Of a stretch of DNA of 27,194 nucleotides, positions 1,215 through 25,014 are shown piece after piece. The stretch comes from a virus (Duplodnaviria; Caudoviricetes). The stretch's first letter is position 1. Each line of letters opens with the position of its first letter. The translations under genes were made by a program, and so were the position numbers. The notes beneath the pieces are model-generated. The model saw nothing but the letters and a program-made list of their open reading frames with translations. It was not told the DNA's origin and ran no database searches. The stretch spans positions 1 through 27,194 of IMG/VR virus record IMGVR_UViG_3300020045_006965. The stretch is one strand, 5' to 3'.

Positions 1215-1673
1215 ATGACCCAATGGCTTTATAATAATGAGTCGATAAATGAAATTGATCCTTCGTTTATTGGCTTTATTTACATCATTACTCAACTATC
1301 TACCGGTAAAAAATACATCGGAAAGAAAAAGTGTTTCTTTCGCAAAACTTCTCTGAAAACTGTCACACTAAAGTCTGGAGAAAAGCGTAAGAAAAAAATT
1401 AGATCACTAATTCCTTCAGACTGGCCTGATTATTTTGGTAGCTCTAATAACCTTCTAGCCGAAATTGAAAAGTGTGGTGAGGAAGATTTTAAACGAGAAA
1501 TTATCAGATTCTGTAAAACTGAGAGTGAATTGACATACCACGAATCTAGAGAAATATTCGTCACGGACTGTTTATTAAAGCCAGATGAGTATTTTAACGA
1601 ATGGGTGATGTGTAGAGTAAGGCGAGACCATCTGATTAAACGAGATAACCCATGCGTTACGGAATTAGAGTAA
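1215..1673 (+). CDS. GIY-YIG family endonuclease (Seg-like)
   Basis: GFIYIIT...KKYIGKK motif, SDW..YFGS, conserved Glu and terminal YFN. Confidence 0.8.
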   Translation: MTQWLYNNESINEIDPSFIGFIYIITQLSTGKKYIGKKKCFFRKTSLKTVTLKSGEKRKKKIRSLIPSDWPDYFGSSNNLLAEIEKCGEEDFKREIIRFCKTESELTYHESREIFVTDCLLKPDEYFNEWVMCRVRRDHLIKRDNPCVTELE

Positions 1674-1717: not shown

Positions 1718-2404
1718 TTATATCACGTACTCCCATGTATATCCATATGCAGATTTTTTAATACCTTTACAACATTTGTCGATTAACCCGGCGACCGACT
1801 TTAAATTTGATGTTGGTTTTAATGTTCCCTGATGATTAAGCCATTCCGCTACATAATATGGGCCATTAAAAACTTCTCCGGTTTCTATACATCGGATTGG
1901 TATTTTCTTTCTTTTTGCTTCGCTACCCTTCATTATGTGTTCTTCTGACTGCTTCGTGCCAGTCTTGGCAATACTCTTTTTCTTCCTTGTCTCATCAGAC
2001 TGTTTCTTTCCATAACCGGGATGATTTTCTCCTGAGTTGGCTTTCCGTTGTTCTTCTGTCCAGTTACGACCAGAAGACCCTTCTCCACCATCAGTAAGAT
2101 TAAGTAGAATTCCGGTATCGATGTCTTTTCTACCATACCATTTGATATATCTTCTTTCGATCCCGAATGCTCCAACTTCAGATAAATCGTATGATATAAT
2201 GACAATATTAGATAAATCTTTAGGCACAGGAATTTTACCATGTGGTTTCCATGCTCTTTCGAGTTGACCCTTACCACAATAGTATACAGTTCCTTTCTTG
2301 CCTAAGTGTGAATCTTTACATCTAATGTAAAAGTAGACGTAAAACCGAAATGTATCAGTTTTAGATTGTGTTTTTAAATACTGGATAAATAGTTGTCTGG
2401 ACAT
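1718..2404 (-). CDS. Free-standing homing endonuclease, GIY-YIG-like domain with NUMOD3/NUMOD1 DNA-binding repeats
   Basis: FYVYFY...[43 protein letters not shown] repeats, C-terminal [14 protein letters not shown]. Confidence 0.85.
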
Positions 2405-2734: not shown

Positions 2735-4534
2735 ATGAGAAGTTTTAAAGAGTACTTGACAGAAGCAAGAAACCAACATGAAGCACATGTGCAAGCCAAA
2801 CATTTCGATACAAATGAATATCCTGTAATTACAGATAATGGTGGACATATCTCAGAATCTGTGGCTCCTGATCCTGAAAATTCTAAACGAATCATCATTA
2901 CTCACGATGGTGCCAATAAACCAAAGGGTGTATCTGGATTGTCTGTACCTAAACATATGTGGAAAGGTACTGCACCATCTGAAGGTGGTGGTATTAGTAA
3001 AAAAACGGGCGAAATTACTAAACCTACCAAGGGAACTATGGGTATGGAAGATAGGAATAAAGCTCGTGCTGAAGTATACGGGTCTGAGCAACGTGAACCT
3101 CTGTCTGTACCGGAAATGGAAACTTCACATAAAACAACGTTAGAGCAACATTTTGCAAAACCAAAGGCACTACAACTTCATGATGAAAAAGAAGCTATTT
3201 CTCGTTTAAAATCAGCAAAACATCTAGATAGCGGTAGTACCACAGATGAATCTGAAAAAACAGATACTATCCTTCATGAAAAGGATAAAAGCGGTAAGGG
3301 ATATACTGCTGCGGCATGTAAGGGTGTCGCTGGGCATACTGTATATACATCTGGTGCAGGTAAAAATGCAGAGCATCGAATTGTAAATACATGTCCGGGC
3401 CAAACGCGTGGATGTGGTGGCGGTGTTGATGCACATGGTGTTGCCAATACAACTAAAGGTACTTGCTTCGCACCAAATGCTGAAGCACAATATCCTGCAG
3501 CATCTGTGCGCCGAGCATATCTGGATCAATCTAAACATGATCCAAAAATGACATCAGATTATATCTTAGCACATACGCATTCGATCCGTAAAGGTGCAGA
3601 TTCTGCTGATAAACAAGGAAAACATTTCGTTATCAGACCAAATACATTGAATGAAAATGATAGATCAACTAAACATGTTGTTGCTGGGTTGAATAAACAA
3701 CGAGCAGGTGAAGGAAAAGGGAGTATCATCAGCTATCAGTATTCTAAAGATAATGAGTTACATGACCCAGAAAATGGTGTACACGTCACACATTCCAATA
3801 TTGGACCAAAGGTTATCAATGATAAAACAGTAAAAGAGAATGTGAATCGGGATACTCGCCGCGTCAACAATACTGTTACTGCAACAACAACTTCTGGTGA
3901 AGATCTACGTAATGCACAGGGAAATAAAACACCGGCAAAACATTCATATTTGGTAACCAATCTTCCTCGTGGTGGCAATTTGGATATGGAATATCAGAAA
4001 CACGCAAAGCATATCAAGTATTGGGATAAAGGCACGAAACTATCTGATGAAGATATTAAAAGTACACCAAAAGAAGGTCACTTCGATGCTAAAGGTAAAC
4101 CAACAACACCAGAAGCTGCCCACAATGGATTTAAAGTTCTTGGTGATCGCAAATATGAATATCAGAAACAGCATATTCTACACCCACGAATGACTATGGT
4201 AAATGGTCATTCTATTCCTAGTGATTCTCGTTTTCAAGATGATGCTCATATGCCTAGCGACGCAAATAAGTTTAAATCTAAGAATGGAAAATCTGCAGGC
4301 GGCATCGTTGTGACTTCAGCAACAACTTCAACAAGTGGTGAGCGCAGTAATTCTTCATTTACTCACCGTATCGATCAACCAAAACTTGACCAGATCAAAA
4401 AAACTGGTGAACATGAAATCGATGCCCCAGAAGAACAAGAAGCTGCAAGAGGTCATGAGTACAATGGCGAAGAGCATTCCGTTAAAGTTTCTGATATTGG
4501 TGGGCTTAAAAAGAATAAAAAAACTTCTGTATAA
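2735..4534 (+). CDS. Large His/Lys-rich protein with T4 internal-protein-like N-terminus and a Gp88-like Cys motif
   Basis: MRSFKEYLTEA resembles the T4 capsid-targeting sequence; TCPG..GC...TCFA motif; TAAATA at 2702 and GGAG SD upstream. Confidence 0.6.
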   Translation: MRSFKEYLTEARNQHEAHVQAKHFDTNEYPVITDNGGHISESVAPDPENSKRIIITHDGANKPKGVSGLSVPKHMWKGTAPSEGGGISKKTGEITKPTKGTMGMEDRNKARAEVYGSEQREPLSVPEMETSHKTTLEQHFAKPKALQLHDEKEAISRLKSAKHLDSGSTTDESEKTDTILHEKDKSGKGYTAAACKGVAGHTVYTSGAGKNAEHRIVNTCPGQTRGCGGGVDAHGVANTTKGTCFAPNAEAQYPAASVRRAYLDQSKHDPKMTSDYILAHTHSIRKGADSADKQGKHFVIRPNTLNENDRSTKHVVAGLNKQRAGEGKGSIISYQYSKDNELHDPENGVHVTHSNIGPKVINDKTVKENVNRDTRRVNNTVTATTTSGEDLRNAQGNKTPAKHSYLVTNLPRGGNLDMEYQKHAKHIKYWDKGTKLSDEDIKSTPKEGHFDAKGKPTTPEAAHNGFKVLGDRKYEYQKQHILHPRMTMVNGHSIPSDSRFQDDAHMPSDANKFKSKNGKSAGGIVVTSATTSTSGERSNSSFTHRIDQPKLDQIKKTGEHEIDAPEEQEAARGHEYNGEEHSVKVSDIGGLKKNKKTSV

Positions 4535-6504: not shown

Positions 6505-7209
6505 ATGGCATTGGAAGAAGGTGAAGAATTTTTTATACCAGAATATTTTGATTATAAGCAATTTATAGAATCATGTTGAATTAAAGTGTATGATAAATCA
6601 TTGGTTTTACATAATCATCATATAATACCTGTAAATATGGGTGGCGGAAATGAAAAGACAAATTTTGTAAAACTTTCTGTTGAAGATCATATCAATGCTC
6701 ACATAATGTTAGCTAAATGTTGGCCAGATGATACGAAGGGAAATATCGATAATTATAGATCTTCTAGGATGTTAGGTAAATTTTCAATAACTGATACTGA
6801 AACTAATGATGCAATATCTTCATCATATCGTGGAAAAAATAATCCATTTTATGGTAAAAAACATTCCACAGAATCTAGAGTATTAATGTCAAAAAATTGT
6901 AGTGGTCGTCGATCAAAAAATAAATCATATGAGGCGATATATGGTGATACTTCAGAATTGGAACGTCTTAAACGTAGTGATGGTGTTAAATCATCGTGGG
7001 AAAATATGACTGAAGAAGAATTAGCTGAACGGTCACATAATATATCATTAGGTTTGCGCGCACATATAAATTCGCCTGATTATAAAAATGGATTTTCTAT
7101 TTCTATTATAGTTGAAGGTATAGAATATAACAGTTATGCTGCTGCTGCACGGTTTTATGGGATTAGTGGTTATAAATTGAAAAAACTTTATGAGATAATT
7201 GAAAAATGA
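6505..7209 (+). CDS. HNH homing endonuclease with NUMOD3; in-frame TGA at 6577 (likely inactivated; open part 6586-7209)
   Basis: HNHHIIP..MGG.N...N...L...DH..AH HNH motif; GKNNPFYGKKHS NUMOD3; SD-led ATG 6505 in frame with GTG 6586. Confidence 0.8.
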
Positions 7210-12591: not shown

Positions 12592-12632
12592 ATATGTTAT
12601 AATTATTCTAACAATAAACTAATAAGAACATA

Positions 12633-13100
12633 ATGAATTATCTACAATCAATTGCAAATGCTTTAATGGAAGTGCATATCTTTGAGATGGCGTTTCAACG
12701 TAAACATGTAATTAATAAGACTCGCGATTTATCGTTACACATTGCTCAGCATATTGCTAAAATTGCCCTATATCCAGAACATTCTGCTCGTAAACATTGG
12801 GAGAAAGAAGTGCATGTTGCATGTAACTCTATCGATGATTTGAAATATGATGGTAATAAGAAATTGAAAGAATCAGATTATCACAATCTTCTCCATAAAG
12901 AACCATATGAGCATACCGGATTACTAGACAATACTGCTAGGAAATCCATCGGCAATGGTATGGTAGATCATAAATGGTCTCAAGAACATAAAGATGGACT
13001 AAATGATAAAATCAAATCTGCTTATCATGTGCTTAGCCATCAACTAGCAAATAATAAATATGTACACATCGATTCTATCCTAAAGGATTCAGGAATTTGA
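12633..13100 (+). CDS. DUF29-like protein
   Basis: HIAK...HWEKEV pattern. Confidence 0.55.
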   Translation: MNYLQSIANALMEVHIFEMAFQRKHVINKTRDLSLHIAQHIAKIALYPEHSARKHWEKEVHVACNSIDDLKYDGNKKLKESDYHNLLHKEPYEHTGLLDNTARKSIGNGMVDHKWSQEHKDGLNDKIKSAYHVLSHQLANNKYVHIDSILKDSGI

Positions 13101-13110
13101 TGGTGTAATA

Positions 13111-13213
13111 CTCGGATTCGTATAGTGGAAAATACAGAGGTCTTCTTTTATTCTTTCGAAATAGAGAATAAAAGAAGCCCCTAACGTCAGTTCGATTCTG
13201 GCATCCGAGACCA
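13111..13213 (+). tRNA. tRNA-Arg (UCG or UCU) with 28-nt hairpin insert in the anticodon
   Basis: Acceptor CTCGGAT/ATCCGAG, D stem GTAT/ATAC, T arm GTCAG-TTCGATT-CTGGC, A-CCA; 103 nt, or 75 nt without insert. Confidence 0.8.
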
Positions 13214-13214
13214 A

Positions 13215-13260
13215 ATTAATATTAAAATACTTTAACGATATAAAGTATTTTAATATTAAT
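13215..13260. repeat. 20-bp perfect inverted repeat ('empty' member of the ATATTRAA stem family)
   Basis: ATTAATATTAAAATACTTTA-ACGATA-TAAAGTATTTTAATATTAAT. Confidence 0.9.
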
Positions 13261-13552
13261 GAAAGATAATATTATGACAGAACAAAGTGAAACTACAATT
13301 GAACCTATCCCGGATTCACCAGAAGAAGTCCGTGTTACACCGAACGAAGAAGTGATAGATCTTATTGAATCACATCCTCAACAACAATCTCGCGCTTTCT
13401 GGTACAAGATTAAAACACTCACAGAAGAATTCCATCTCACGGTTATTGCCATTACTTCTACTGGTGCGCGAGAAGGTGTTGCTCAACAATTTCCTGGTGC
13501 AGCTGTTGCTTATCTAGGTGTAAGTGATAAAATTATGCAAGTTAACGGATAA
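13259..13552 (+). CDS. Hypothetical protein (start may be 13274)
   Basis: 97-aa ORF. Confidence 0.7.
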   Translation: MKDNIMTEQSETTIEPIPDSPEEVRVTPNEEVIDLIESHPQQQSRAFWYKIKTLTEEFHLTVIAITSTGAREGVAQQFPGAAVAYLGVSDKIMQVNG

Positions 13553-13573: not shown

Positions 13574-13648
13574 TCCGCTGTAATTCAAAGGTTAGAATAA
13601 TCTCTTTATAAGGGATCTATCTGTGTTCGAGTCACAGCAGCGGTACCA
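13574..13648 (+). tRNA. tRNA-Ile (UAU)
   Basis: (T)CCGCTG/CAGCGG(T), ATTC/GAAT, ATCTC-TT TAT AA-GGGAT, CTGTG-TTCGAGT-CACAG, A-CCA; TGTTATAAT promoter ends at 13564. Confidence 0.85.
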
Positions 13649-18829: not shown

Positions 18830-18940
18830 TAATATCCGAATCCTCTGCCTGTTGAAAGATACAACGCATGATATCTAGAATTTACTAGTGAAACCTATGG
18901 ACGCATAGGTCTACGGAAATCTCGTCTGTGATAAGCAGAC
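18830..18940 (+). ncRNA. Run of three hairpins, candidate structured RNA
   Basis: ATATC..TGC..GTTG/CAAC-GCA-GATAT; ACCTATG-GACG-CATAGGT; GTCTG-TGATAAG-CAGAC. Confidence 0.45.
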
Positions 18941-18942
18941 AT

Positions 18943-19052
18943 CATATTAAAACATACTGTTTAACTGTTAGGTGACACGAATCAGCGAACTATATTAAAT
19001 TGTAGCAGGTTGATGTCATAGGTTCGAGTCCTGTACAGTATGTTTTAATATG
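18943..19052 (+). ncRNA. tRNA-like RNA enclosed in an 18-bp perfect stem
   Basis: CATATTAAAACATACTGT/ACAGTATGTTTTAATATG; T arm ATAGG-TTCGAGT-CCTGT abuts the 3' arm. Confidence 0.7.
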
Positions 19053-24085: not shown

Positions 24086-24203
24086 GGACGATTGGGTGAG
24101 TGGTTGAAACCGAGGGACTGATACGGAACATCTGTTAAAACGGGTGTTCAAATAAATCCCTTCCTTAAAAAGCACGCAGGTTCAAATCCTGCTCCGTCCA
24201 CCA
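24086..24203 (+). tRNA. tRNA-Tyr (GUA) with 32-nt hairpin insert in the anticodon
   Basis: GGACG/CGTCC acceptor (2 inner mismatches), GGT/ACC D stem, AGGGA/TCCCT, long variable region, GCAGG-TTCAAAT-CCTGC, A-CCA. Confidence 0.75.
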
Positions 24204-24249: not shown

Positions 24250-24337
24250 TGCTGATATGGTGATCCTTGTTGTGTATACAACGTCTGAATAAAATCAGAA
24301 GAAAATACGGGGTAAAAATCCTCACGAAATATCAGCA
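24250..24337 (+). ncRNA. Cloverleaf-like structured element
   Basis: TGCTGATAT/ATATCAGCA closing GTTGT/ACAAC, TCTGA/TCAGA and GGGG-TAAAAAT-CCTC. Confidence 0.5.
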
Positions 24338-25014
24338 CTCATTATTGCGGGTAGTGTAGCCAACAATCCAGTGCATGCAATTTTATTCTTCAATTCTATA
24401 AATGCAGATTCTGGTGAATAATATCTATCTTCATATATTTCTACTATCCATCCCATTTTTTGAAATTCTTTAATTTTAATAGAATCTCTATTTTGGACTT
24501 GTTTTAAAGAATGATTTTTGAACCCCATTTCTCTATAATGCCACGGTCCATTCCATAATATTGCAATTTTATAATCGTGCAGAAGAATATCGGCATCCCA
24601 ACCATTAGCTATAGATGTATCATTACTAGTAACATTAATGAAATGATCAACACATAAATCAAAAAGTTTAATTTCATCTTTAGATCTTTTATTTTGTATT
24701 GCTGCTGATGATTTACCGCCTTTTCGACTACCTTCGGTCATCAATTTTCTTCTACAGTCGGGAGTGCAGGATTTTCTTTTGGTATATGAAAGAAAATAAT
24801 TATTACAGCAAGTACATGTAAATTCTTTCAATAATTTCTCTTTAAATAATTTCTCTTTCTTTGGTTTATTCTTTAATGTATTACTTCTTTTTAAATTAGT
24901 CTCAATTGAATGAGTTCTAGAATTGGCACAATTTCTAGAACAATAAATACCTTCTTTGAAATGTAAATTAAAACATTTTAAACAAAATTTTTCTTGTGGG
25001 ATTTTAATTTTCAT
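24322..25014 (-). CDS. Vsr/DUF559-like putative homing endonuclease with Cys-rich zinc repeats
   Basis: YCSRNCAN, CTCC...SCTPDC, RS..E..L, DADI...KIAI.WNG.WHY, RD..K...GW. Confidence 0.75.
   Translation of the reverse strand: MKIKIPQEKFCLKCFNLHFKEGIYCSRNCANSRTHSIETNLKRSNTLKNKPKKEKLFKEKLLKEFTCTCCNNYFLSYTKRKSCTPDCRRKLMTEGSRKGGKSSAAIQNKRSKDEIKLFDLCVDHFINVTSNDTSIANGWDADILLHDYKIAILWNGPWHYREMGFKNHSLKQVQNRDSIKIKEFQKMGWIVEIYEDRYYSPESAFIELKNKIACTGLLATLPAIMSADIS

Follow-up and report, generated by a model that had tools for sequence, protein, structure and literature searches.

The closest geometric parallel to the insert analysed here (positions 13147-13174 of the window, by which we mean the whole stretch of viral DNA under analysis, 27,194 nt) is found among the substrates of RNase III. 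The E. coli RNase III substrate uR1.1 and its product RNA6 (PMC1540722, PMC9291653) share with the insert a 28-nt hairpin with 11 pair positions, a tetraloop and a 2-nt 3' overhang, as well as A-U type pairs in the proximal box, a C-G pair at +7, and a U·G plus a U-A pair in the distal box. However, uR1.1 is presented in those sources as a T7-mRNA-derived model substrate that is not rejoined, whereas the insert is embedded in the anticodon arm of a tRNA and has an irregular helix on the exon side.

The intervening sequences of 23S rRNA, as described in PMC8708148, are likewise hairpin inserts in a stable RNA with a patchy distribution among relatives, and they are excised by RNase III, which for the insert of the window is only predicted. 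They measure 100-200 nt, reside in rRNA and are left unjoined, whereas a tRNA anticodon loop needs rejoining in order to decode; with a tRNA as host gene and 28 nt, the insert falls outside this class. A literature search for religation of rRNA intervening sequences found no paper. The 'enigmatic' introns of Lak megaphages (PMC6784885) also sit in the anticodon loop of phage tRNAs, are present or absent in relatives and have, according to that source, no known mechanism, but they are 79-114 nt long, one of them contains a nested tRNA match, and the four distinct ones examined all differ from a simple hairpin of 28 nt. Because of its 28 nt and the partly tRNA-like character of the Lak introns, the insert was not assigned to them. 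Joining by a T4-type ligase of an anticodon-loop break with 5'-P and 3'-OH ends, as in our proposal, is described for T4 Rnl1 and Pnkp after PrrC cleavage (PMC3400036), although in that case a host tRNA is cut by a defence nuclease, end healing is needed and no intron is removed.

The archaeal and eukaryal introns processed by EndA/TSEN are short, spliced by proteins and located in the anticodon loop, as is proposed here, but they lie at 37/38 and carry a bulge-helix-bulge, whereas the insert lies at 36/37 and has no bulges. Its central helix has 2 of 4 pairs, against 3 or 4 of 4 in all 87 archaeal controls, and the anticodon is followed by U, whereas all 92 archaeal inserts have A at this place (both among the matches listed); the bulge-helix-bulge, which a first-pass annotation of this DNA had noted as absent, is indeed missing. 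In tRNA-Arg(CCU), the group I intron site is at 36/37. The U/…G junction of the insert at 36/37 resembles the splice sites of group I introns, which occur in bacterial tRNA genes (PMC3984707), but the insert is a single 28-nt hairpin without the ribozyme core P3-P9, and 13111-13213 has no Rfam match at E<=1, so that a group I intron, already discounted in the first-pass annotation, was rejected. As other members of the class described below end in C or A, the terminal G of the window insert follows from its pairing with C35.

No description of tRNA introns excised by RNase III was found in a full-text literature search judged mostly by titles and abstract openings. In the features tested, the insert differs from group I, bulge-helix-bulge and Lak-type introns and from rRNA intervening sequences. 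Splicing of a tRNA via RNase III, if true, would mean that bacteria and phages have a further, protein-catalysed way to splice tRNA, that a ligase is needed for the supply of a rare-codon tRNA, and that the Rnl5 family has a physiological substrate. It would also correct annotations, the insert having sat misannotated in the classic phage Aeh1. The proposal is cheap to test, with exact cut sites, named enzymes and the cultured phages Aeh1, PX29 and Ah1 together with their intact sister phiAS5.

The tRNA-Arg gene and its splice site

The gene at 13111-13213 (+) has the body of an ordinary tRNA, as had been noticed at first reading: the acceptor stem (13111-13117/13203-13209) pairs at 7/7 positions, the D stem at 4/4 and the T stem at 5/5 with one G·U, and both the discriminator A73 and an encoded CCA are present. 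The 5' exon (13111-13146, tRNA positions 1-36), delimited by ARAGORN, ends with the anticodon and has a D arm identical to that of intact Arg tRNAs. It is followed by the insert (13147-13174), a predicted intron of 28 nt at 36/37 with 10 bp, a C·U apposition, a GAAA loop and the 2-nt 3' overhang AG, and by the 3' exon (13175-13213, positions 37-76 including A73 and CCA), supported by ARAGORN and a stem check. ARAGORN misses the gene with introns off; run with introns on, as the first-pass annotation had suggested, it reports tRNA-Arg(tct) with a 28-nt intron at 36/37.

The predicted fold of the 103-mer is a cloverleaf in which the anticodon hairpin is long (z=-4.45, equalled by 0/200 shuffles). 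A perfect 13-bp Watson-Crick stem, which had been reported before, is present at 13142-13154/13165-13177 and continues with U13155·G13164 and U13156-A13163. Contrary to its earlier description as palindromic, the insert alone is not a palindrome, as the stem borrows 5 nt from the 5' exon and 3 nt from the 3' exon. In the anticodon stem, A28 and C42 are mismatched and U31·G39 is a wobble pair.

A CU-NNN-AA loop is kept by four 28-nt deletions, which would leave AAG, UAG, UCG or UCU as the anticodon. Two of them, those of 13146-13173 and 13147-13174, had been put forward in the first-pass annotation, and both give 75 nt with the loops claimed, the former with TCG and the latter with TCT; the assignment to Arg was upheld, but TCG was not. 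Scanning metagenomes for this D arm rendered 97 matches, 38 of them distinct and all without an insert, and the anticodons of these 38 intact tRNAs are 24 TCT, 9 ACG, 1 CCT, 3 TTC, 1 CTC and 0 TCG. The nearest intact tRNA is a TCT with 60/75 identity that also has C1-G72. The TCG option was rejected on this basis (0/38), and its cut would be blunt; TAG and AAG were rejected by the intact same-D-arm tRNAs together with the comparison of registers. Treponema genes with identical exons exist in both insert-bearing and insert-free form. The same-D-arm anticodons, the intact phiAS5 orthologue of the Aeromonas insert-bearing genes and the identical exons of Treponema thus place the site at 36/37 and the identity at Arg(UCU). 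As judged from its sequence, 13111-13213 is a tRNA-Arg(UCU) gene with a 28-nt insert at 36/37, for which a mature, charged form is predicted. AGA accounts for 52 of the 206 Arg codons across 20 ORFs of the window.

Comparison of orthologues, also proposed in the first-pass annotation, was informative for Aeromonas phages, in which the same locus occurs with and without insert, but the orthologue of the window gene itself was not recovered: the 97 D-arm matches include neither an insert-bearing nor an intact one, all being intact genes of other lineages. In PX29, Aeh1 and Ah1, an insert of 26-28 nt follows CUUCU at a locus behind gp57B, at which phiAS5 has an intact Arg(TCT). A search of four complete insert-bearing genomes (Aeh1, PX29, Ah1 and G007) for an intact Arg(UCU) found none, while that of phiAS5, used as a control, was recovered. 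Table 4 of the Aeh1 genome paper (PMC1524935) has no Arg(UCU) in its list of tRNAs and contains three pseudo-tRNAs. In current annotation, the insert gene appears as tRNA-Glu in Aeh1 and as a joined tRNA-Lys in PX29, and is unannotated in Ah1.

Hairpin inserts in other phages, bacteria and archaea

Three viral scans and one genome scan with D-arm and T-arm patterns, in which pairing was not required, rendered at least 447 loci, with overlap. A stem-pairing filter gave 208 distinct candidates, from which we removed 16 class II or tandem artefacts and 29 inserts shorter than 24 nt. Among the matches listed, 165 inserts were analysed, namely 53 other viral, 19 from giant-virus MAGs, 87 archaeal, 4 bacterial and 2 from the window, with L309, L346 and L388, which are the sequences of PX29, Ah1 and Aeh1, each counted once. 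Two genome scans that required the paired register gave 2 chance matches and 0, respectively, and were kept out of the counts.

A long hairpin, for which 10 or more of 12 pairs had to form in any one register, is present in 24 of these 165 inserts of at least 24 nt, and 16 of the 24 are in the 33:38 register. By origin, this register is used by 12/17 viral, 3/3 bacterial, 1/1 window and 0/3 archaeal long hairpins among those listed, so that none of the 87 archaeal inserts listed has a long hairpin in it. The other eight listed, including L015, L017, L055, L064 and L470, use other registers, and both the Chitinophagaceae insert (L631) and the second interrupted tRNA of the window, at 24086, fall below the long-helix cut-off. 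Pairing of positions 35-36 with the last two bases of the insert was found, among the listed inserts, in 23/53 viral, 4/4 bacterial, 1/19 giant-virus and 2/87 archaeal cases. The last two bases track the anticodon (UCU-AG, UGU-AC, UUU-AA, GCC-GG). The 16 listed class members are ten Arg, three Thr, two Gly and one Lys, those of Treponema being Arg. The first-pass annotation had allowed for a simple pseudogene if the insert were unique; instead, its design is shared by cultured phages and by a small number of bacteria. Inserts L478 and L357 gave no cultured match.

Certain pairs recur at fixed distances from the junction. U·G is found at +9 in 14/16 listed class members against 8/160 other positions, the exceptions being L319 and L380; U-A at +10 in 13/16 against 36/160; and A-U or U-A at +3 in 15/16 against 72/160, while G-C or C-G occurs at +1 in only 1/16. 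The mean identity at the remaining arm positions of the 16 members is 38%. At 70% arm identity they form 13 clusters, 11 of them with U·G at +9, and at 60% with single linkage 5 clusters, 3 of them with U·G at +9. The members are therefore not independent, shared ancestry contributes to these counts, and Fisher values overstate their independence.

The bacterial inserts come from four MAGs, three of Treponema and one of Chitinophagaceae. The insert gene of L544 sits among V-ATPase and RelA-like genes. An intact Arg(UCU) was found in none of three of the four genomes (G010, G011 and G012, all incomplete MAGs), and the bacterial MAG G009 contains two different inserts and one intact copy.

RNase III geometry, proposed rejoining and alternative explanations

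The precursor helix of the window gene comprises 15 bp (13142-13156/13163-13177), in the register 32:39, 33:38, 34:37, with the pairs C32-G39, U33-A38 and U34-A37. Since C35 and U36 pair with the last two bases of the insert, the predicted cuts at 13146|13147 and 13174|13175 would be staggered and leave 2-nt 3' overhangs. Ends of this type, with 3'-OH and 5'-P, are ascribed to RNase III in PMC3867540, and the crystallised product RNA6 is a 28-nt hairpin with a 4-nt loop and a 2-nt 3' overhang (PMC9291653). The piece excised from the window precursor would have 11 pair positions (10 bp plus the C·U apposition), a GAAA tetraloop and a 2-nt overhang. Of 10 staggered registers tried along the stem, only the 28-nt one yields a 7-nt loop, and only this one places U·G at +9 together with U-A at +10.

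For the E. coli enzyme, PMC1540722 gives a minimum of 11 bp between cut and tetraloop, a distal box of UA/UG in which the U·G is stringent, and an inhibitory or disfavoured G-C at proximal positions 2 and 4, and states that a single box set suffices to specify a site. In sequence terms, the insert has the 2-nt staggered duplex cut, about 11 bp from cut to loop, and a distal box of U·G/U-A, the distal-box-like pairs U13155·G13164 (+9) and U13156-A13163 (+10) lying next to the loop (13155-13164; PMC1540722, PMC8708148). Between 13147 and 13172 it contains the proximal-box-like pairs U13147-A13172 (+1) and U13149-A13170 (+3), which put A-U type pairs at proximal positions 2 and 4, and the middle-box-like pair C13153-G13166 (+7). 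The placement of the distal box at +9/+10 was derived from the text, without the figures, of PMC1540722, PMC3867540 and PMC8708148: the span from distal-box end to distal-box end is 22 bp, and deletion of the second pair from the top removes the last pair of the box (PMC8708148). Which pair of the box is the U·G was deduced from the direction of numbering, and the source wording 'directly adjacent to the tetraloop', taken literally, moves the box by one. U·G is enriched in the distal box of B. subtilis and E. coli sites (PMC11780869) and the Aquifex enzyme shows no distal-box dependence (PMC3074117); the box rule is thus enzyme-specific, and its validity here would depend on the enzyme of the host. 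On the exon side, the helix is short and irregular, with 3 bp, a bulge, 2 bp, a mismatch and 2 bp, and has G-C at the equivalent of proximal position 2, so that RNase III might nick one strand only.

We consider it probable that the 28-nt hairpin is a protein-spliced mini-intron, cut by the host RNase III and joined by an ATP-dependent ligase, likely the phage Rnl1. Transcription would proceed from the TGTTATAAT motif at 12595 through the ORF at 12633-13100, the precursor would fold so as to hide the anticodon within the hairpin, host RNase III would cleave the two strands at sites offset by 2 nt, the exons would be rejoined by an ATP-dependent RNA ligase, likely Rnl1, and the product would be a normal 75-nt tRNA reading AGA. 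As RNase III leaves 3'-OH and 5'-P ends, ATP-dependent ligases could use them directly, without kinase or phosphatase; T4 Rnl1 is described as joining tRNA halves through 5'-P/3'-OH ligation (PMC3400036). The second cut would be the weakest step, owing to the irregular exon-side helix. The insert behaves like a mobile passenger, which may be tolerated because host and phage enzymes would remove it; conceivably, it might also time the supply of the tRNA or protect the gene from attack on the DNA. We give a somewhat better than even chance to the broader view of a distinct RNA splicing route, in which mobile mini-introns would be a bare RNase III site, the 2-nt stagger would regenerate the anticodon loop, and Rnl1 in phages, or an Rnl5-type ligase in some bacteria, would rejoin the exons.

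Rnl1 (PF09511) was found in all four complete insert-bearing phage genomes tested (G003, G007, Aeh1 and PX29), and no match was found on the 27-kb window, which is an estimated 15% complete, or on four of four other insert-bearing fragments. It is also present in the insert-free phiAS5, and is hence a clade trait and not linked to the insert. In bacteria, a PF09414 ligase is present in 4/4 insert-bearing genomes against 28/121 and 18/61 relatives; the best family for these ligases is TIGR02306, above its cut-off in G012 and below it in G011, and RtcB is found in 2/4 of the insert-bearing genomes. The co-occurrence of ligase and insert and the missing intact copy in bacteria are suggestive, with the reservation that the MAGs are incomplete and the three Treponema related. 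Rnl5-type ligases have been described as sealers of nicked duplexes, not of loop breaks. In Treponema, a DRB0094/Rnl5-like ligase gene was observed near rnc in 7/20 stretches and near a CCA-adding-like gene in 5/20 (L685 463-2685; L691-L709); proximity to rnc is seen in 1/3 insert-bearing Treponema genomes, and it likely reflects clade synteny.

The same RNase III geometry would equally be expected if the precursor were cut and the pieces stayed unjoined, as tRNA halves, a decoy or an intermediate of degradation, in the manner of the 23S rRNA intervening sequences. Excision without rejoining is the known case in the text of PMC8708148, and both the irregular exon-side helix and the lack of a ligase gene on the window contig fit it. 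However, in four isotypes the register hits 36/37 exactly and restores a canonical loop of 7 nt, for which halves or a decoy would have no use, and an intact Arg(UCU) is wanting in 4/4 complete phage and 3/4 bacterial carriers, for which reasons we regard this explanation as unlikely, although the least so of those considered here.

Phage tRNAs are generally dispensable. A palindromic element acting at the DNA level and never removed from RNA, either as a pseudogene or as a shield against integrases or homing endonucleases, would account for a patchy presence between close relatives and for the decayed appearance of the second and third tRNA-like genes of the window; tRNA genes are indeed attacked by homing endonucleases (PMC2330249), although the part recognised by SegB is the T arm. 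Such an element would not be expected to hold U·G, which matters only in RNA, at a constant spacing from the junction or to follow the anticodon, and the exons of the window gene pair almost perfectly, which makes this explanation marginally less plausible than unjoined cleavage.

Splicing might also depend on a phage-encoded or other double-strand-specific RNA nuclease, with RNase III possibly making just one of the cuts. The weakness of the exon-side half-site would be compatible with this, and the other phage insert designs (mini-tRNA inserts, those of Lak phages and that of the window at 24086) must use something else. The match to the RNase III boxes at +1, +3, +9 and +10 and the identical design in bacterial chromosomes speak for RNase III, and an RNase III-family gene was found in none of five phage records, including four complete carriers, with a control detected in 8/14 bacteria and archaea; we therefore rate a different nuclease as doubtful, a little below the preceding explanation. 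Finally, a fold-back chimera from assembly or library preparation is very improbable, because U·G and C·U keep the arms from being exact reverse complements and cultured, independently sequenced phages have the same design, even though no listed piece from eight public runs spans the gene and the window copy has no independent read support.

Genomic context and other unusual tRNA genes

The 27-kb window covers an entire virus record, and its gene content is T4-like, with DNA polymerase, sliding clamp, clamp loader, RegA and DsbA. The top cultured match of the clamp loader is just 54% identical and thus points to no particular host. Freshwater metagenome runs contain pieces near-identical to the window; in the contigs of 8/14 runs these start at 13317 or beyond, and none among those listed spans the tRNA-Arg gene, an outcome that speaks neither for nor against the insert. 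None of the runs listed as containing such pieces is an RNA run. Several searches for relatives gave little: the ClpP-like neighbour used as bait recovered none, the exact 3'-exon pattern had 0 matches in viral contigs, and a RegA alignment scan covering 3/64 parts rendered no close relatives. When cultured phages were searched with the gene by BLAST, the matches were T-arm or D-arm fragments and one chance-level hairpin lying between two Acinetobacter genes. A clade-specific RegA pattern led to one relative, L205, with no Arg tRNA in the stretch examined.

Upstream of the tRNA-Arg gene, a promoter-like motif, TGTTATAAT, is located at 12595-12603 (+), one of 9 exact copies that the window carries, each of them on the + strand; judging from the motif, it likely drives the ORF at 12633-13100 plus the tRNA-Arg gene. 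Immediately 3' of the CCA there is an AT-rich perfect inverted repeat of 20 bp (13215-13260, +; z=-9.0), possibly a terminator or a processing stem, which may or may not belong to the insert system. Contigs of 76 nt bearing a shorter hairpin that resembles this repeat were found in two public runs. Other features of the record include a 599-aa His/Lys-rich ORF (2735-4534, +), with a weak GP88 match and no match in PHROG, and free-standing homing-endonuclease-like genes at 24322-25014 (-), 1215-1673 (+), 1718-2404 (-) and 6586-7209 (+); one such gene separates the interrupted tRNA from the Thr and Gly tRNAs.

The second interrupted tRNA gene of the window (24086-24203, +) has a class II body, likely Tyr-GUA, and a 32-nt insert that fits the rule in part. 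It has A73, a 10-bp hairpin with a UAAA loop, and two mismatches in the acceptor stem. L205 carries an intact Tyr(GTA) at the syntenic place, which makes 34/35 the likely position of the insert. On manual inspection, excision of 28 nt (24125-24152) would place U·G at +9 and A-U at +3 of the hairpin; the 3' end of this piece coincides with the Tyr junction, but 4 extra nt would remain on the 5' exon, and the cut region is unpaired.

Ile-TAT tRNAs are unusual in viruses that infect bacteria. The window contains at 13574-13648 (+) a tRNA with a UAU anticodon whose first pair is U·U. A degenerate third tRNA-like element at 18954-19043 (+) has a good acceptor stem and T arm, no proper D arm, and a small hairpin in the anticodon region (z=-3.2), with two more hairpins upstream (18893-18940). 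Among the other insert-bearing loci, the Leu(UAA) genes of L055 (6269-6402), L056 (5369-5492) and L060 (2101-2234) have inserts of 47-49 nt that end in ACCA and resemble nested mini-tRNAs. Another class of inserts, in phage Arg and Thr tRNAs, combines a small hairpin with a T-arm-like hairpin and often splits the anticodon (L325, L333, L339, L344, L360, L366, L042, L103 and L055). Inserts of 71-96 nt that resemble whole tRNAs were also observed in anticodon loops, at L004 2341-2510, L050 266-436, L051 5220-5368, L055 120-269 and L079 7589-7745.
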